Both the position numbers and the translations under genes were made by a program. This document shows positions 1-6,508 of a stretch of 48,395 nucleotides of DNA, piece after piece. This DNA is from Patescibacteria group bacterium (GTDB lineage Bacteria > Patescibacteriota > Doudnabacteria > UBA920): contig JBBTRN010000022.1 of assembly GCA_038065175.1 (NCBI GenBank), positions 1-48,395 on the forward strand, read 5' to 3'. The notes below the pieces were generated by a model. The model did no database searches and had not been told where the DNA came from. It saw only the letters and a program-made list of their open reading frames with translations. The first letter of the stretch is position 1, and each line of letters begins with the position of its first letter.

Positions 1-3000
1 CGTCGTCCCGATGCCGACGTTGCCGACCTGTGTGACCGTTAAGAGTTGCGTGCCCGTGGAAGACGCAACCACAAACGGATTAAGCCCACCGCTTCCCACC
101 ACAGCCAAAGAAGCAATGGGGGAAGTAGTGCCTATGCCGACATTAGAATTAAATATCGCGGTGTTGTGCGCCACAATGCCGCCGAAGACAACATTTTCGG
201 GGTGCACATCCAAGGAAAGCAGTTTTTTATACAACAGTTTGACTCTGTTTGACAAACCGTTTCCGAACATCATATAATTATGACGCATGAAATTAACACT
301 TAGACTATCTTCTGAAAATCGTTTATCCAGACTATCCGATATTGCCGCCGACATCGGCCAGATATTTTTCGCAACAGTATTTCTTGGTCCGTTCTTTTCC
401 GAAAAAACTAATTGGTGGACAGTATTATTCGGTCTGGTTTTCTCTGCCGCGGCCTGGTTTGCCAGCTTATTATTAACTAAAGAATAATCATGGATACTCT
501 CTCCAACAATATGATTAACGTCTACATCCTCGGTGGTATTTTGCTCATCATCATAATCCTTTTGGGCATCCTGGCCAAGCAGGATAAATAACCCATCTTG
601 ATCATTTTCAGGCCCAAGATCATTTTTTTGATGGTCTTGAGCTTTTATTTTTTCGGTGTTCAGAGCCTGAATATATTGAGCGTAAACCTCCTCTTGTTCC
701 GGAGTTAAAGCCTCGCCTTTTGCAACATCAACATAATGCCCGCCAACAAAGTTGTGGGTGTTTTCTATTTCAATATCATATGTTTGCTCCTTAATTCCTG
801 TTTTATATATGGCAGTAATTGCTTCCCAGCCATCTACTGTCGCGACTAACATCCCTTCACGCAAATATTTTGCCTCTATCCATTTAGCCATTGACATCTC
901 TCCTCTTGACAAGCTAAGAGGGCTATGATCTTGTAAATCTACAAGAGATCGTGTGGGCTGCGAATCCCCGAAAACCTTGTCCGGATGTAACAGTTCTACC
1001 GCCAGGGATTCATTGAAATCCAAGCTGGCCATGGTCTCGAGAAGAACGTCCCTCTGGGGCGTTTTTCGTTTTGTAGCCCTGTTATAGTCCTTGCCTTGAT
1101 AAATTTTATCCAATGGCGTACTATAGTAATAGGCAGGCGAAGAGGATACTCCTGCCGTAACCTGCATTTTATTTTGCTTGACAAATTCTATAATACGCTC
1201 TATACTGAACTTACTGGAATGAGGCAAGCTGGGCTTGACCTCATTCTTTTTTTGTTTCCGCTTAAGTAAAGCTAAAATTCGTCCGGCAATCGGCTTACGA
1301 ACTTCATCAATGCCATCGCGCATAATAAACACCACCGCTCCCAGCAATATATCGGCAAGCTGTAAAAAGGCGCTTCCCTGACTTTCCAAGGGTATAATAT
1401 TTTCAACCATAGGCAAGCTGGCCATTTTCTCAATAGCCTTATCCAACTTTGCCGGGGCGTGGAGGTAGTCGGCAAGCACCGAAACTTTAACTGTTGAAGC
1501 CTTAAGCATCTGCGCCAGCATATCGTGATACTGGTTCCAGAAATGCGCGCCACTCCTTTGCTGGAAAATGCAGGCAAAATCCCAAAATTCACTATAGCGT
1601 TCCAGTATGTCCAATAACTGCGTATAGAACCCGACACTTTGTTTGGTAATATAGCTGAATTTAAATTCAAATGTTTTCTCGTTTTGATTGGGCAGCCTGG
1701 AAGCCGCGTCCAGAAAAATATTTCGCAAATGGTGGTTTATCTCCGAAGCTCTGTCATGGACTACAATACCGCCCACCCCGACAGTATCTTCCCTGCCAGC
1801 CGTAAACAGAGTAATTTCGTCCACAAACATAAAGTGGGCTTTTTTATTTTGAAATTTTTCCTTTTTAGCCGGTAAAATTTCCTGCGATTTTTCCAAAGCA
1901 AAGTAAGGATGATTTCCCGTGGTGCGGATAGCTTTGCCGCTACGGGTAATTAATTTATAGGTTTCCTGCTGACCCATATCCTGAAGAGCCTTAACCCTGC
2001 TCCAGGTAAAGCCACCATCCGGTTCCATGCTCAAAATTTCATCACCCGCCTGGATTTGGTCTATGCGGACTTCTTCCCACTCTTCGATGTATTCATCCGA
2101 TCCATCCGATTTTCTGATTTTCCGGCGTTTGCGCCTGCGCAAACGCGTATCCCCCGTAACACACTGCCCCACCACATGCATAACGCCGCTTGGGGTCGTC
2201 GTCCCGATGCCGACATTGCCGGTACTTGTCAATCTAACCCATTCAGTATTATTCGTTCCAAGAACAAGCGGTTGGCCAGAAAATGTTCCTACCGTGAGAG
2301 GGACGTCAGATGAAGCCTCCATTACCAAACCTGTTTGACCGGCAGTGAAGCCAAATCGTGTGTTTCCTGAAGTACCAATATAAAGCTGTGAACTTGTGCC
2401 TCTCACCAGGCTAAATACATTTCCAGATCCATCTCCAACTTGTAGCTTCGCCCCCGGCACCGCCGTCCCAATTCCGACATTTCCGGTCGCGGTATTAACA
2501 AAAAGAGTGGGGGTTGAAGAAGTGCCGACTGTAAGGTTACCGTAAACATCCAATTTAGACGCGGGGCTGTTGGTGCCAACACCTAAACGGTTATTGCTGT
2601 CATCCCAAAAGAAGTTGGCGTTGTCTTCCAAAATGTTGGACGCGCCCTGGAAAAGTACAGAGCCTTGAGTTAAGCCCGGGTTTAAGCCGGTTACGGTTAA
2701 CCCTGCTATTGTAGTTGAGCCGCTAAAGGTGGCAGCGCCGGAAACGGTAAGTCTTGAGAGGGTAGATGTGGCGGCAGACAGAGTGCCGGCTAAAGCAGTA
2801 TTGCCGGAAACATTGACAGTCTGGGAGTTTAAGATGTTGATGGCGGAATTGTCCGAGGAAAAATAAGTAAACGAACCAATAGTGCCGTTGCCCTGTCCTC
2901 CGGGGTTGCCTAAGTTCACATAACCGATGCTCCACCCGCCTTGTAAGGTGGAGCCGGCGCCGGCCGGGCCTTGCGCGCCAATGTCGCCCTTGCCGCCTTT

Positions 3001-4080
3001 TTCCCCTTTGAATTTTCCTTCAGAGAGATATTGGTTAAGTCGGGAGTCAATAAGCTGGTTTATGTAATTAGGGTCAACTGCGGTTTCGCCGAGGACGCTG
3101 CCCCGGCTGTCATTGCGAGCCCCGGGCGAGGAATCCCTTAAATGGGATTCAAAAGATGATAAGGGATCCCTTGACTGTCTAACATCAACGGATAAGGGAT
3201 TCCTCGACTCTCCGCCCGCTGGCGGATCGCTCGGAATGACAAAAGCAAAATTATTTCCGTAATCAAACTCATTCCTCGCGTACTTGTCCAAAAGGCCGAC
3301 ATTGCCGACAAGGCCATTCCAAACATTTACAGCTAACGATTTGCCTTGATTTTTCTGTTCATTGAATGAAGAAATAATAACATTCCCTCCGGCCAGATAC
3401 GGAGCTTTTATATCAGCCCAAAAATTTATTGCCAGGTTTTCTATTTGGCTTCCTGCATGGCTGGCGAGCGAAATTACCGCGACCGCATCGTTGCTTATTT
3501 CCGCTTTAGTTTTGACGTAAGTTTTTTGAGTTTCCGATTTAAAATGGTTTGAGAAACCTTTTATTTCCCCCAGATCGCTTAAAATATCCGTGCCCAAATC
3601 CAAAATCGCCTCATTCGTTTCAGCTCGGAAATAATGAAGATAATCCCTGGCTTCGGTTAAGGCATACGAAACAGTTTTAGGCGTTTGAAAATTCGCCAAT
3701 AACAGCCTCGGCTGAAAATCCACAAACCGCGAAATGAAAAAGCCTTCGGTGGCTATCATTAACAGGCAAGTGAGGCCTAAAAGAAAGTTTAGGGAGAGGA
3801 AGCCGGCTTGAGTTTGTAAAGCCCGCAGGGGAATCCGCCTGCGGCTCTCCTCAAACTTCCGCATAAGCTTTTTATGTTTTACCTCCTGCCGCAATACATA
3901 ATCCGCCACTATATCGTTGGTGGTATGCCAGTCATTATTCTTTTTTACGCCCGTAATTCGGCCCTTTCTCACCAGAAGCCTTAAATATTCAGCCGAATAA
4001 GGCGTATTCTGCGCGGCTTCGGAAAGCGGAACGAGGTCTGCCTCGCGCTTAACTAAAAGCTCGCGCTGCTGCGCTGTCAT
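1..4080 (-). CDS. Giant surface / tail-fibre-like protein (3' end runs off the window), interrupted by an intein-like insert
   Basis: The minus-strand frame is stop-free from ATG 4080 to base 1. This explains its absence from the supplied track, which appears to list only ORFs with an in-window stop. Translation shows MTAQQRELLVKREADLVPLSEAAQNTPYSAEYLRLLVRKGRITG (HTH-like), a TM helix FLSLNFLLGLTCLLMIA, a collagen-like GEKGGKGDIGAQGPAGAG run, and repeated GNVGIGT(T/A)xP units. The same unit resumes at 1-160 in the same frame. Confidence 0.78.
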   Translation of the reverse strand, partial: MTAQQRELLVKREADLVPLSEAAQNTPYSAEYLRLLVRKGRITGVKKNNDWHTTNDIVADYVLRQEVKHKKLMRKFEESRRRIPLRALQTQAGFLSLNFLLGLTCLLMIATEGFFISRFVDFQPRLLLANFQTPKTVSYALTEARDYLHYFRAETNEAILDLGTDILSDLGEIKGFSNHFKSETQKTYVKTKAEISNDAVAVISLASHAGSQIENLAINFWADIKAPYLAGGNVIISSFNEQKNQGKSLAVNVWNGLVGNVGLLDKYARNEFDYGNNFAFVIPSDPPAGGESRNPLSVDVRQSRDPLSSFESHLRDSSPGARNDSRGSVLGETAVDPNYINQLIDSRLNQYLSEGKFKGEKGGKGDIGAQGPAGAGSTLQGGWSIGYVNLGNPGGQGNGTIGSFTYFSSDNSAINILNSQTVNVSGNTALAGTLSAATSTLSRLTVSGAATFSGSTTIAGLTVTGLNPGLTQGSVLFQGASNILEDNANFFWDDSNNRLGVGTNSPASKLDVYGNLTVGTSSTPTLFVNTATGNVGIGTAVPGAKLQVGDGSGNVFSLVRGTSSQLYIGTSGNTRFGFTAGQTGLVMEASSDVPLTVGTFSGQPLVLGTNNTEWVRLTSTGNVGIGTTTPSGVMHVVGQCVTGDTRLRRRKRRKIRKSDGSDEYIEEWEEVRIDQIQAGDEILSMEPDGGFTWSRVKALQDMGQQETYKLITRSGKAIRTTGNHPYFALEKSQEILPAKKEKFQNKKAHFMFVDEITLFTAGREDTVGVGGIVVHDRASEINHHLRNIFLDAASRLPNQNEKTFEFKFSYITKQSVGFYTQLLDILERYSEFWDFACIFQQRSGAHFWNQYHDMLAQMLKASTVKVSVLADYLHAPAKLDKAIEKMASLPMVENIIPLESQGSAFLQLADILLGAVVFIMRDGIDEVRKPIAGRILALLKRKQKKNEVKPSLPHSSKFSIERIIEFVKQNKMQVTAGVSSSPAYYYSTPLDKIYQGKDYNRATKRKTPQRDVLLETMASLDFNESLAVELLHPDKVFGDSQPTRSLVDLQDHSPLSLSRGEMSMAKWIEAKYLREGMLVATVDGWEAITAIYKTGIKEQTYDIEIENTHNFVGGHYVDVAKGEALTPEQEEVYAQYIQALNTEKIKAQDHQKNDLGPENDQDGLFILLGQDAQKDYDDEQNTTEDVDVNHIVGESIHDYSLVNNKLANQAAAEKTRPNNTVHQLVFSEKNGPRNTVAKNIWPMSAAISDSLDKRFSEDSLSVNFMRHNYMMFGNGLSNRVKLLYKKLLSLDVHPENVVFGGIVAHNTAIFNSNVGIGTTSPIASLAVVGSGGLNPFVVASSTGTQLLTVTQVGNVGIGTT
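249..278 (+). promoter_or_regulatory. Consensus sigma70-type promoter, TTGACA-18 nt-TATAAT
   Basis: TTGACA lies at 249-254 and TATAAT at 273-278. The ATG of the 287..487 ORF is 8 nt downstream, a leaderless-type geometry also seen at lexA, recJ and dnaX in this window. Confidence 0.6.
287..487 (+). CDS. Small membrane protein (66 aa, two predicted TM helices), antisense to the intein-like region
   Basis: The ORF directly follows a perfect promoter. Hydrophobic segments are IGQIFFATVFLGPFF and WWTVLFGLVFSAAAWFASLLL. Confidence 0.5.
   Translation: MKLTLRLSSENRLSRLSDIAADIGQIFFATVFLGPFFSEKTNWWTVLFGLVFSAAAWFASLLLTKE
490..591 (+). CDS. Small membrane peptide (33 aa, one TM helix)
   Basis: The ATG lies 2 nt after the stop of 287..487. 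Translation is MDTLSNNMINVYILGGILLIIIILLGILAKQDK. It is below the length cutoff of the supplied track. Confidence 0.4.
   Translation: MDTLSNNMINVYILGGILLIIIILLGILAKQDK
595..629 (+). terminator. Hairpin plus T7 run closing the + strand mini-operon
   Basis: ATCTTG (595-600) pairs with CAAGAT (615-620), followed by CATTTTTTT. Confidence 0.4.
1300..1835 (-). other. DUF3800-like domain embedded in the intein-like element
   Basis: FMFVDE (N-terminal DE motif) and SAFLQLADILLGAV (QxxD motif) match, from memory, the two signature motifs of Pfam DUF3800. The domain occupies the position where inteins normally carry a homing endonuclease. Confidence 0.5.
3109..3240. repeat. Palindromic MITE-like element (GTCATTSCGAGC ... 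GCTCGGAATGAC termini), in frame in the surface-protein gene
   Basis: The terminal inverted repeats are gtcattgcgagc / gctcggaatgac. The inner IR is cgaggaatccctta / taagggattcctcg and the central palindrome is aagggatccctt. It reads through as VIPSDPPAGGESRNPLSVDVRQSRDPLSSFESHLRDSSPGARND with no stop. Confidence 0.75.
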
Positions 4081-4284: not shown

Positions 4285-4313
4285 ATTCTAGCAAAAAAAT
4301 CTCTATCTGTCAA
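4285..4313 (-). promoter_or_regulatory. Promoter of the surface-protein gene, TTGACA-17 nt-TAGAAT
   Basis: The reverse complement of 4308-4313 is TTGACA and of 4285-4290 is TAGAAT. About 190 nt of hairpin-rich 5' leader follow before ATG 4080. Confidence 0.55.
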
Positions 4314-6214
4314 CGGCACCCATCTTCTAGGCAATCTTCTAGGCGGTAAAGGTAACCAAATTCATGCTGTTCAGGCAATTCCCCGCCAATCCCCTGCTTA
4401 AGCGGTTCATCAGACAGGACAAAAACCGGCCGGCCATGGGGCAAGGTCTTTTTTAAAACGAAAATGGGCTGGCGGTCGTAAATTTCCATTGTATCCAGGC
4501 CTGACCAATATTGGAAATACAAATGGCCTTTGGGCAAGTTTGGAAAGTTGATAAGGAAAATAGCATCTTGCGTGTATTTTTCTTTAAGCTCCAACGCCGC
4601 CCGCTTGATCTGTTCTTGATATTGGTAACCTTCTCGCGGCTTTATGTCGGAAAGCCGGTTAGCGCGCGCATATGTGCCTAAAATTAAAAATAACGATAAT
4701 ACCATGGCGATTTTTGATCCCTGACCCCGCCCTCCGACTCGCTCCGCTCGCTTTGGCAACATACTATGGAATCCTTTTTCCAATAAACGATAAACCATCC
4801 ACAATGCGGCAAAAAGTAAGGCCGCGTACAGCAAAATCTGAAAGCGCTCAAAAGCGGTATTGGTTTGAAATAAATGATATTTTACCTGCCGCACATCTAA
4901 ACGTATAATGATGTATGATAAAATTGTCGTAGCCGATAAAGCAAACATCGCGGCATAATGTTTTTGTTCCCATAACCGCTTAAACATTAACGCCGTAAGC
5001 ATTAGCATGGCAGGCAAAGCCGCAAAAATAAAATTGGAAATTTTTGTCAGGCCAAAAGACAATGGCACCAAAAACGACAAAACCCAAATAGTCAGAAAAA
5101 AAATTCGCTCTTTACTTAAATACTGTACAGTATTTAAGTTAAAGCTGGATATTGGCTTTTTAAAACCTGCCCACAAACCAAAAATTATCGCGGCTACAGC
5201 AGACACATACAAATACGGCAACAGCATTTCCCGCAAATATATAGTCAGGTAATAATCCCACGGCCTGCCCCAATATTCTAATTCTTTTAATAAGTGCAGG
5301 GTCTGGGTATTTTGCTCAAAATAATATTCAGCGGGATATAGCAAAAACAAGCCAAGCTTTTCCGGCAAGATAATTATTAACATAGTAAGCCCCGCATACA
5401 AAAAATTTAATAATCCGCGTTTCCATCCATCGGCCGTTTTTGACACCATGAACAACGCCGGGAAAAATAGCAACGCCAATCCGCCTTTGCTTAAAAAAGC
5501 CAAGCCGGCAAACACTCCGAACCATAGATAATGCTTTCTCCTTGTCATTCCGAGCGAGCCCGACGGCTTCGAGGGCGAGTCGAGGAATCCCTTATTCGAC
5601 GTATCATCGATATTTAAGGGATCCCTCCACGCCTCTTCGGATGCACTCCTCGTTGGTCGGGATGACAGTTCTGTAATTCTCAAAACCCTACCCAGCGCCA
5701 AAATTCCAAAAAAACAAAACATCAAATCGTGCAAACCCGAAAACTGCCTGCCCTTTACCAATTCAAAAACATAAGGGCTAAAGGCAAACAAGCTGGCTGA
5801 TGTAACGGCAACCGCATACCCGAAATGCCTTCGCGCAACAAAAAAAAGCGCCGTGATCGATATCAAGGCAAATATTGCCGAGGGCAGCCTGAACGCAAAT
5901 AGCGAAGGGTTGATTTTATAAAAAACCGCCTGCAAATACAAAGGCGCTAAAGGTTTATGCACCCAAATATAGTTATTCGTCCAGTCCTGGAAATCTATGC
6001 CGATATCCGTCAAATGGAGCTTTGGCGGCCAAGGATCCTGACTTAAATTTTTCACGACATTGATATGGACAGCCTCATCCCACAAAGTAATGTAATCTGT
6101 GCCTAAATTATTAAAATAAAAATACCCGGACACAGCCAAAACAACCACCAGCGGTATAAGCTGGCCTTTGGGGCTAGCTACGAAAAAAATCCAAAGCTTT
6201 TTTACAAATTCCAC
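4310..6214 (-). CDS. GT39 / ArnT-PMT-like membrane glycosyltransferase
   Basis: Polytopic membrane protein with an N-terminal motif LWDEAVHINVVKNL typical of 4-amino-4-deoxy-L-arabinose/dolichyl-phosphate-mannose-type transferases. I moved the start to GTG 6214 because residues encoded by 6230-6409 belong to a repeat element. Confidence 0.65.
   Translation of the reverse strand: MEFVKKLWIFFVASPKGQLIPLVVVLAVSGYFYFNNLGTDYITLWDEAVHINVVKNLSQDPWPPKLHLTDIGIDFQDWTNNYIWVHKPLAPLYLQAVFYKINPSLFAFRLPSAIFALISITALFFVARRHFGYAVAVTSASLFAFSPYVFELVKGRQFSGLHDLMFCFFGILALGRVLRITELSSRPTRSASEEAWRDPLNIDDTSNKGFLDSPSKPSGSLGMTRRKHYLWFGVFAGLAFLSKGGLALLFFPALFMVSKTADGWKRGLLNFLYAGLTMLIIILPEKLGLFLLYPAEYYFEQNTQTLHLLKELEYWGRPWDYYLTIYLREMLLPYLYVSAVAAIIFGLWAGFKKPISSFNLNTVQYLSKERIFFLTIWVLSFLVPLSFGLTKISNFIFAALPAMLMLTALMFKRLWEQKHYAAMFALSATTILSYIIIRLDVRQVKYHLFQTNTAFERFQILLYAALLFAALWMVYRLLEKGFHSMLPKRAERVGGRGQGSKIAMVLSLFLILGTYARANRLSDIKPREGYQYQEQIKRAALELKEKYTQDAIFLINFPNLPKGHLYFQYWSGLDTMEIYDRQPIFVLKKTLPHGRPVFVLSDEPLKQGIGGELPEQHEFGYLYRLEDCLEDGCR
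5114..5139. repeat. 26-bp perfect palindrome ACTTAAATACTGTACAGTATTTAAGT inside the GT39 CDS
   Basis: Perfect dyad symmetry, read in frame as NLNTVQYLS. Two related copies lie at 46602-46631 and 47174-47199. Confidence 0.85.
5544..5666. repeat. Second copy of the GTCATTCCGAGCG-type palindromic element, in frame in the GT39 gene
   Basis: Sequence gtcattccgagcgagcccgacg...cgaggaatccctta...taagggatccct...cgttggtcgggatgac. It encodes SSRPTRSASEEAWRDPLNIDDTSNKGFLDSPSKPSGSLGMT without a stop. Confidence 0.75.
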
Positions 6215-6229
6215 AAAATAATAATACCA

Positions 6230-6409
6230 GGACTTACGGGTTTGAGCCAAGTTCCCTGCCTGCCGGCAGGCAGGGAGGCATTTTCCGAGGATTTTGAGAG
6301 CCGTAGTCGGACTACGGAGAACAAAACCGCAGCATTTTAACGAAGAAATTGGCCAAATGCCGTCTGGGGTCGGGCTTTGCCCACCCAATGACGGCAATCC
6401 CGTAAGTCC
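6230..6409. repeat. GGACTTACG-TIR structured element, copy 1
   Basis: Perfect 11-bp terminal inverted repeats ggacttacggg / cccgtaagtcc. The conserved core aggcattttccgaggattttgagag-hairpin-gaacaaaaccgcagcattttaacgaagaaattggccaa is shared with the copies at 33671-33830 (inverted) and 42864-43033. Confidence 0.8.
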
Positions 6410-6508
6410 TGAATACCACAAAATCAAGAGCGCGGTGTGTTATGGTCCCAAACCGCGCCCAGTGATAACTTTTAATTTCCTCCTTCATTTCCTCCTTCCT
6501 AGTGATTT

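Follow-up and report, generated by a model that had tools for sequence, protein, structure and literature searches.

What kind of element interrupts a giant, repeat-rich, surface-type protein gene of an uncultured, ultra-small bacterium of the Patescibacteria group, and what does the nuclease-like domain inside it do? The question is raised by a 48,395-nucleotide stretch of DNA, contig JBBTRN010000022.1 of assembly GCA_038065175.1 (hereafter the window, meaning the whole stretch), at one end of which a minus-strand gene passes from GNVGIGTT-type repeats into 667 residues of a different character (163..2163) and then back into repeats. We hold with high confidence that these residues are a canonical class-1 intein carrying a DUF3800-type domain with an RNase H fold. 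What that domain does for the intein can be said less firmly, and is weighed below.

The minus-strand frame 4080→1, the translation of window 1–4080, runs for 1,360 codons without a stop. It starts with an ATG at 4080, has stops upstream of that ATG and is still open at window base 1. An earlier note on this DNA, made from the letters alone, had described such a stop-free open reading frame (ORF), and all the motifs that it quoted were found at the places described; its limits for the element were exact, Cys640 to Asn1306 (residues 640–1306), and are supported by motifs, Pfam and TIGR models, Foldseek and a second assembly, L001, discussed below. (All features of this gene given here lie on the minus strand.) The N-extein, amino acids 1–639 (2164..4080), comprises a helix-turn-helix (HTH)-like segment, a hydrophobic span and GNVGIGT-type repeats, and ends in ...GNVGIGTTTPSGVMHVVGQ. 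The C-extein (1..162, the gene running past the window) starts with Thr1307 (160–162), the +1 nucleophile, followed by AIFNSNVGIGTTSPIASLAVVG..., and the GNVGIGTT-type repeat is back in frame from amino acid 1313.

Between these exteins the class-1 set of residues is complete, with Cys1, the block B TxxH, the C-terminal His-Asn and Thr+1 all present. The Hint N-lobe (intein residues 1–92, 1888..2163), modelled by AlphaFold2 with a predicted local distance difference test score (pLDDT) of about 80–90, holds blocks A and B. Block A starts at the junction VVGQ/CVTGDTRL, in which Cys640 (2161–2163) is intein position 1, and block B is TTGNHPYF (amino acids 720–727, 1900–1923), with T721-G-N-H724 as its T-x-x-H. 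The Hint C-lobe to block F (intein residues 419–476, 739..909; ...WIEAKYLREGMLVATVDG...TYDIEIENTHNFVGG) was recognized by Intein_splicing, by TIGR01443, by phmmer against the PDB and in the AlphaFold2 model (pLDDT ~80). Block G, GIVAHN (intein residues 662–667, 163..180), provides the penultimate His1305 and the terminal Asn1306 (163–165) and coincides with a modelled strand at 658–666 (pLDDT ~85). The other motifs are FMFVDE at amino acids 750–755, FLQLADILLGAV at 905–916, WIEAKYLREG at 1067–1076, THNFVGGHYVD (block F) at 1108–1118 and FGGIVAHN/T at 1299–1307.

The Pfam model Intein_splicing matched intein residues 31–474 (E = 2.3e-10; 40.9 bits versus a gathering (GA) cut-off of 35.8), and TIGR01445 (intein_Nterm) gave 26.5 bits versus a cut-off of 24.5. 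TIGR01443 (intein_Cterm) scored 15.6 bits, equal to its cut-off of 15.6, over intein residues 461–477, on block F; phmmer alignments to PDB sequences matched this block F region to the CDC21 and DnaB inteins. When the full-length AlphaFold2 model was compared with the PDB using Foldseek, it matched PI-PfuI, the hedgehog Hint domain and the DnaB, DnaE and gp41-1 mini-inteins, and also RNase HII. The model matches go far beyond what chance would give, and those above cut-off, to Intein_splicing and TIGR01445, bear out the earlier proposal of an in-frame, intein-type Hint element within a GNVGIGTT-repeat protein, which we take to be membrane-anchored.

The same proposal had likened the element to a bacterial intein-like (BIL) domain, which would cleave, or splice inefficiently, and thereby diversify a hypervariable surface protein. 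There is a real likeness to the A-type BIL domains: a Hint domain that starts with Cys and ends with His-Asn sits in a variable surface or secreted bacterial protein, the repeat-rich host resembles BIL hosts rather than a replication or repair enzyme, and the weak PDB matches by phmmer and Foldseek include the BIL structures 2lwy and 6y75. BIL domains, however, have no nested endonuclease and usually lack the +1 nucleophile (Amitai et al. 2003 is said to be the source for these features). The window element contains a nested nuclease domain, matches intein models above the Intein_splicing and TIGR01445 cut-offs, keeps its terminal His-Asn and is followed by the same type of host sequence as precedes it. 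It also has Thr at +1, as do all 45 complete relatives among the matches listed from a metagenome scan (described below; the family counts taken from that scan all refer to the matches listed). Because Thr+1 is accompanied by all of the class-1 residues, we assign the element to the canonical inteins and not to the A-type BIL domains, which we consider a very improbable identity for it.

An artefact of assembly, whether a chimeric contig joining repeat units or a mis-assembled insertion near the C-terminus of the intein, has in its favour that repeat-rich genes often break assemblies and that many related contigs end within such genes. We give this explanation next to no credence. The frame stays open for 1,360 codons, related inteins of many samples share the architecture, and the independent low-coverage assembly L001 (ENA ERZ1300416, 13.5 kb) is 98.85% identical to the window across 6 kb and holds the same intein, including its long C-terminal insertion, followed by 497 further amino acids of C-extein with more GNVGIGT repeats. 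As L001 carries the same element independently, we regard the intein as real. Over L001 8212–13500 (coverage ~2x) the differences from the window are mainly 34 single-base gaps, probably sequencing errors and not pseudogenisation, because of which the gene is called there as two separate ORFs; P0001, the one or the other half of it, ends in ...FALKIAGNFTG.

Of the 34 GTDB loci with relatives of the N-extein, none contains the window intein, and repeats in two of them indicate how the exteins would be joined. In locus L016 the repeat continues without a gap across the junction as GNVGIGTTNPTEKLHVVGD-GYFTADVGIGTA (...KLHVVGD-GYFTADVGIGTA), and in L006 as GNVGIGTTTPGYALTVVGD-GYFTGNVNIGQN (...ALTVVGD-GYFTGNVNIGQN), while the spliced junction of the window would read GNVGIGTTTPSGVMHVVGQ/TAIFNSNVGIGTT (...VMHVVGQ/TAIFNSNVGIGTT). 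Since both repeats align across the spliced junction, these intein-less sites, which are homologous repeats and not orthologous alleles of the gene, appear to join their sequence at the same position as the window exteins, and not at a different one. In DNA, the spliced junction of the window would be ...GGCAATGTCGGCATCGGGACGACG...CATGTGGTGGGCCAG/ACCGCGATATTTAATTCTAATGTCGGCATAGGC..., also ...CATGTGGTGGGCCAG/ACCGCGATATTT..., and the consensus intein-less target is ...CTNCAYGTNGARGGNCAR/ACNTAY...; a consensus target is also given as GNVGIGTT...LHVEGQ/TYISGNVGIGTT.

The domain nested in the intein spans intein residues 106–310 (~205 residues, 1234..1848) and was delimited from phmmer relatives, PF12686, AlphaFold2, Foldseek and PADLOC. 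It lies between block B, which ends at intein residue 88, and the Hint C-lobe, which begins at about residue 419; this is the canonical insertion point of intein endonucleases. A middle segment of about 180 residues had been described here, which we replace by the ~205-residue domain and a 108-residue linker, predicted to be disordered, that follows it. No Pfam match to LAGLIDADG, HNH, GIY-YIG, His-Cys box, PD-(D/E)XK or EDxHD folds was found in the intein.

The suggestion that this domain is DUF3800-like stood in part. Its DE and QxxD motifs are intact, and its relatives and fold agree with the assignment, but the direct PF12686 score stayed below the threshold of 21 bits, the intein reaching 16.4 bits and its domain, taken alone, 18.6, which counts against the reading that we favour. 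For that reason we call the window domain DUF3800-like, a divergent homologue rather than a curated member, and base its homology on intermediate sequences and on the predicted fold. Phmmer, run exhaustively against 1.84 billion cluster representatives, found 72 relatives (six at E ≤ 1e-30, best E = 4.9e-37), most of them free-standing proteins of about 200–250 amino acids. All 26 relatives tested matched PF12686 (best 1.5e-12), and the DUF3800 intein of the related protein P0030 passed the gathering threshold with 22.1 bits versus 21, covering profile positions 1–148 of 149. The window copy keeps every residue that is invariant in the alignment (D14, E15, E65, Q167 and D170), as well as D131, which is nearly so; its conserved positions read FMFVD754E755, FE805FKF, LAD871Y and LQ907LAD910.

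AlphaFold2 modelled the isolated domain with a pLDDT of 88.7 and a predicted template modelling score (pTM) of 0.86, and gave residues 106–310 a pLDDT above 90 in the full-length model. The best Foldseek matches of the domain model in the PDB were archaeal RNase HII and human RNase H2A (E ~6e-4, probability 1.0, TM ~0.44), followed by RNase HIII, retroviral integrases and RNase HI, and PADLOC returned a full-length match to the defence candidate PDC-M04A (E = 5.9e-12). Both the DUF3800 partner of type VII retrons (PMC7736814) and the DUF3800 part of a Cas12a2-associated protein (PMC10910872) have been called RNase H2-like. From its relatives, conserved residues and modelled fold, we call the middle domain a divergent DUF3800 homologue whose RNase H-like catalytic set is intact. 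It shares with the DUF3800 proteins of these systems and with PDC-M04A the motifs F-x-D-E, FEFKF, ADY and Q-x-x-D, a length of ~200 amino acids and the predicted RNase H2-like fold; unlike them it is nested in an intein and neither stands alone nor is joined to a reverse transcriptase or TPR domain, its sequence is divergent (sub-threshold in Pfam), and it has no defence-gene neighbourhood. The closest free-standing relative, P0020 (39% identity), is encoded on a Hainich groundwater contig (L036, ENA ERZ1292632), flanked by a gene for a transglycosylase of the penicillin-binding protein (PBP) type and a gene for an rve-type insertion sequence (IS) transposase; free-standing DUF3800 copies may themselves be mobile.

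The window intein belongs to a large family. A word-index search showed its Hint parts to be 41–61% identical to those of inteins in other GNVGIGTT-repeat proteins, and the hosts with named taxa are all Patescibacteria (Andersenbacteria, Sungbacteria, Kerfeldbacteria and Giovannonibacteria). These inteins occupy a common site, ...GNVGIGTTxPxxxLHVxGQ / CVTGDT[RK]LRRRRRK ... THNF[IV]GN[GD]I[VI]AHN / T[YFA][LI]xGNVGIGTT, and the block G form GI[VI]AHN is kept across the family. Scanning metagenomes with a degenerate DNA pattern for GQ/CVTGDT found at least 120 stretches, from which 80 loci with 85 matches were examined. Among the 85 matches listed were 57 verified inteins, 45 of them complete; a recognizable repeat lay upstream of about 50 of the 57, the remainder being mostly at contig ends or behind variant upstream sequence. 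The block B TxxH occurs in 57/57, being itself the selection criterion, and the +1 residue is Thr in 45/45 of the complete inteins.

The middle modules of this family vary. Among the matches listed, 17 of the 57 inteins carry an NYN domain (PF01936), one a DUF3800 domain and 39 something else, and clustering of 44 middle regions gave six multi-member clusters (NYN with 13 members, then 7, 4, 3, 2 and 2) and 13 singletons. At least five non-NYN module clusters occur in the L040–L119, P0003–P0018 and P0030 set, and several of them resemble nuclease candidates; one of the five, the seven-member cluster, to which L114 and two of the L103 inteins belong, is without a Pfam match. The sole DUF3800 intein among the metagenome matches listed, in L103, is 431 amino acids long and 40% identical to the window intein; among the representatives, DUF3800 inteins were found in P0021, P0022, P0029, P0030, P0036, P0040, P0045, P0048 and P0058. 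Some hosts carry several inteins with differing modules within one protein: four in an ORF of L103 (Ga0209211_10009243), two in L062, and three in P0030 (2,084 amino acids), namely an unknown module, an NYN domain and the DUF3800 intein mentioned above.

The sister inteins with NYN domains are like that of the window in their Hint parts (46–56% identical), in their site, LHVxGQ/CVTGDT...AHN/TY, and in a poly-Arg hairpin; they differ in the middle module, which is NYN (PIN-like) there and DUF3800 here. In NCBI records the relatives appear as ‘NYN domain-containing protein’ or as ‘hypothetical protein’. In the literature searched, we found no paper that combines an intein with DUF3800, with an NYN domain or with Patescibacteria, and none of the papers there on inteins and the candidate phyla radiation describes the family in its title or abstract.

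Outside the nuclease domain, the intein has three further segments. Directly after block A, a basic/acidic β-hairpin (2065..2145; RLRRRKRRKIRKSDGSDEYIEEWEEV), seen in the table of junctions and modelled as strands 7–17 and 23–33 (pLDDT ~85), pairs a poly-Arg/Lys strand with a Glu-rich one (RLRRRKRRKIRK...EYIEEWEEV). It is kept as CVTGDT[RK]LRRRRRK in the NYN/DUF3800 sub-lineage, with LLPI... instead in another sub-lineage, and by its composition may be a nucleic-acid-binding arm. The second segment is the linker from the nuclease to the Hint C-lobe (intein residues 311–418, 108 residues, 910..1233), predicted to be disordered (AlphaFold2 pLDDT ~30) and without a Pfam match; despite the predicted disorder it is 68% identical to P0002 across 63 amino acids (RATKRKTPQRD..SLDF.ESLA.ELLH...SQPTRS...SPL.LSRGEMS).

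The third segment lies between blocks F and G. It had been described as about 150 low-complexity residues lying between a degenerate and an intact copy of a duplicated C-terminal block, but in the insertion-free relatives P0002, P0022 and the DUF3800 intein of L103 the two blocks adjoin, as THNFIGNGIVAHN/T. THNFVGG and GIVAHN in the window are therefore block F and block G of one Hint C-lobe, the halves of a single F–G motif set 186 residues apart. By alignment to those relatives and by AlphaFold2, the insertion in the F–G hairpin runs from H1115 to G1300 (intein residues 476–661, 181..738). It begins with an entry motif, GHYVD..ALTPEQE, and continues with a long helix, a core of ~100 low-confidence residues and return helices to the exit VVFG; in intein numbering, AlphaFold2 placed helices at 488–515 and 620–650 and gave low confidence to 516–619.

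Insertions of the same kind occur in the NYN-type intein of P0008 and in P0018, and in 5 of the 45 complete metagenomic inteins (L053 and L119, ~140 amino acids each, and L059, L063 and L068), a frequency of about 10% of related inteins among the matches listed. They share the entry HNFxxGH[YFLW][VIM].. (often ..LT.E[EQ]E) and the exit [FY]GGI[IV]AHN around a variable, low-complexity core. The window insertion taken alone had no Pfam match and no homologue by word-index search, and only its boundary motifs align with those of P0008, P0018, L053 and L068. Its GC content at third codon positions (GC3) is 0.285 versus about 0.48–0.50 elsewhere in the gene, which suggests a different mutational or selective regime. 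These sequence comparisons speak for an accessory insertion that recurs in the F–G hairpin, and not for a duplicated block.

Two other origins for it were considered and rejected. A 12-nucleotide similarity, GGCGG(G)CATTRTG, lies at both DNA boundaries of the insertion in the window, but we attribute it to chance and not to a target-site duplication or mobile DNA, given that four other insert-bearing loci lack such a repeat and the window holds no second copy. A second intein nested in the insertion was also rejected, there being no Cys or Ser start and no Hint or Pfam match.

The length and disorder of these segments bear on whether the intein still works. It might be a decaying or domesticated element, inherited vertically, whose nuclease is inactive or irrelevant and whose insertion and linker are neutral expansions, perhaps slowing or abolishing splicing, so that the module has become a permanent part of the surface protein. 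About 290 of the 667 residues lie in parts with predicted disorder or low model confidence, the F–G insertion has its deviant GC3 and no homologues detected outside the family, no co-conversion signal was found (see below), and in many members of the family the middle region is short or of low complexity, as is typical of degenerating endonuclease domains. Yet C1, the block B T and H, the block G H and N, T+1 and all of the conserved DUF3800 carboxylates are intact, and the nuclease domain is confidently modelled (pLDDT 88.7). The boundary motifs of the insertion are conserved across inteins with different modules, from which we argue that they are under selection. Its position, moreover, is what we take to be the S11 split site, at which engineered split inteins with a six-residue C-fragment presumably still splice; an insertion there need not abolish activity. 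We consider decay a distinctly unlikely account of the element.

For the canonical intein, we infer splicing by the standard four-step pathway from the residues present. An N–S acyl shift at Cys640, helped by T721 and H724 of block B, would be followed by trans-esterification onto Thr1307 and by cyclisation of Asn1306, helped by His1305, after which an O–N shift would join ...HVVGQ to TAIFNSNVGIGTT.... The DUF3800-type domain would cut intein-less, repeat-coding target DNA, and repair would copy the intein in. Because the domain occupies the usual position of a homing endonuclease, a homing or maintenance role, as had been suggested for it, is a reasonable one; by analogy with known inteins, homing is the role that we find most likely for it, at roughly even chances. 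That the element is a canonical intein with a DUF3800-type domain and that this domain is its homing nuclease we think, taken together, moderately probable. The poly-Arg hairpin and the F–G insertion would be accessory elements; on the analogy of the accessory domains of archaeal VMA inteins (PMC8966425), they probably contribute nucleic-acid binding, of the DNA-recognition type, or are merely tolerated.

The repeats that carry inteins differ from those that do not. His stands at repeat position 15 in 0.82 of intein-associated versus 0.19 of intein-free repeats of the same contigs, and a second GNVGIG motif follows within 16 amino acids of the intein in 26 of 45 cases among the matches listed, whereas it occurs 20–32 amino acids downstream in 4 of 240 free repeats. 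Such differences would be expected if the intein recognises a specific site, or if the mobile unit brings with it about 20 codons of the adjoining exteins.

Several observations weigh against homing by this intein. The GTDB scan with the N-extein found no orthologous intein-free allele, only distant relatives that are 29–50% identical. The upstream GNVGIGTT codons gave no synonymous-site signal of co-conversion (0.34 versus 0.41 in intein-free repeats), a test that is negative or uninformative at the present divergence. Splicing could suffer from the 186-residue F–G insertion and from the disordered linker. Among solved structures, the nuclease domain comes closest to RNases with RNA/DNA hybrids as substrates, and not to site-specific DNA endonucleases; DUF3800 and NYN are otherwise known from defence-type contexts, such as type VII retrons, Cas12a2-associated proteins and PADLOC PDC-M04A; and the host segment lies C-terminal to one predicted membrane span, from which it follows that the spliced nuclease might end up outside the cell, away from the chromosome.

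The last three points, and the missing co-conversion signal, are also what favours another reading, in which the intein splices but its module is not for homing: the freed nuclease would attack RNA or RNA/DNA hybrids in a defence, toxin-like or surface scavenging role. RNase HII and H2A are the top structural matches, DUF3800 is an effector-like partner in the retron type VII and Cas12a2 systems, PDC-M04A was matched at E = 5.9e-12, the NYN domain of the sister inteins is a predicted RNase family, and the part of the host that follows the span is predicted to be extracytoplasmic. However, the endonuclease slot, the single conserved site, the multiple copies per gene and the swapped modules form the pattern of selfish homing, many DNA nucleases are found among the RNase H-fold and PIN-fold enzymes, and the locus is no defence island, its neighbours being arginine biosynthesis genes, DinB, MreB and RecJ. 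We therefore rate a nuclease directed at RNA or hybrids as unlikely, though worth keeping in mind, and prefer homing. A further proposal, to which we give somewhat less than even odds, is that DUF3800 and, in the sister inteins, the PIN-like NYN domain are homing endonucleases of families not recognised before. They would drive an extensive intein family, found among metagenomic and MAG sequences of Patescibacteria type, whose target is a short coding motif (GNVGIGTT...LHVxGQ/TY) repeated in giant surface proteins; a single intein lineage could then spread to many sites within a gene and a genome, with nuclease modules being swapped. In a more radical variant, splicing would free these nucleases at the surface of episymbiotic bacteria, for the scavenging of nucleic acid or for attack.

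How far does the element depart from known systems? Class-1 inteins that enclose a homing endonuclease, such as PI-SceI and PI-PfuI, combine HINT, homing endonuclease and accessory domains (PMC8966425). The window intein is like them in its Hint fold, Cys1, TxxH, block F, His-Asn and +1 nucleophile, in a nuclease placed between blocks B and F, in accessory segments within Hint and in its in-frame location at one conserved host site. It is unlike the classical examples in that the nuclease is DUF3800/RNase H-like and not LAGLIDADG or HNH, that a membrane-anchored protein of surface type, rich in repeats, serves as host in place of a conserved replication, repair or ATPase enzyme, that the target motif is repeated within gene and genome (with up to four inteins per ORF), and that a long insertion parts blocks F and G, as it also does in some of the sister NYN inteins (for example, P0008). 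The PT-HINT domains (PF07591) of polymorphic toxins likewise pair Hint and a nuclease in large, repeat-rich exported proteins, and relatives of the window intein match PT-HINT weakly; there, however, the toxin is C-terminal, at the end of the protein, whereas here the nuclease lies inside Hint and the host repeats go on for at least 497 amino acids.

Within amino acids 1–117 of the host protein (window 3730–4080), the HTH-like segment comes first, which in the window copy has no Pfam match; the homologue P0013 matches MerR (PF00376, 5.9e-9) at the equal N-terminal position. Basic residues precede a single hydrophobic span, FLSLNFLLGLTCLLMIATEGFFI, at amino acids ~95–117. This suggests an odd architecture, in which a membrane anchor connects a DNA-binding head in the cytoplasm with a giant ectodomain made of repeats. 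In the GTDB scan, the best relatives of the N-extein were repeat proteins of Doudnabacteria, Saccharibacteria and other Patescibacteria metagenome-assembled genomes (MAGs). Directly upstream on the same strand (4310–6427, minus) lies a gene for a 705-residue glycosyltransferase of the PMT_2 family (E = 5.9e-10), which may glycosylate the host surface protein. It and the other neighbours, GNAT, argH, argG, OTC, DinB, MreB, RecJ and iPGM, are chromosomal genes, and DNA pattern scans of IMG/VR found no member of the intein family; a phage origin was rejected on these grounds. Rfam gave no match for RNA elements, and none for the RNA motifs that Weinberg et al. associate with DUF3800.

An intein with a nested nuclease is a known kind of element. 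Four features appear to be new: the type of nuclease (DUF3800/RNase H-like here, NYN in the sister inteins), the host and target (giant proteins of surface type and a motif repeated in them, in Patescibacteria wherever a taxon is named), the multiplicity per gene and the recurrent F–G insertion. To our knowledge, few endonuclease types have been described in inteins, chiefly LAGLIDADG and HNH. Current annotation overlooks the inteins of this family. Natural insertions of 50–190 amino acids mark the stretch from block F to block G as permissive, which is relevant to the design of split and conditional inteins. If the reading that we prefer is true, RNase H-fold, NYN and other modules in the endonuclease slot would widen the repertoire of homing nucleases, and DUF3800, so far tied to defence-type associations alone, would gain a testable biochemical role. 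With a repeated target and up to four inteins per gene, spread among paralogous repeat sites becomes testable in these bacteria.

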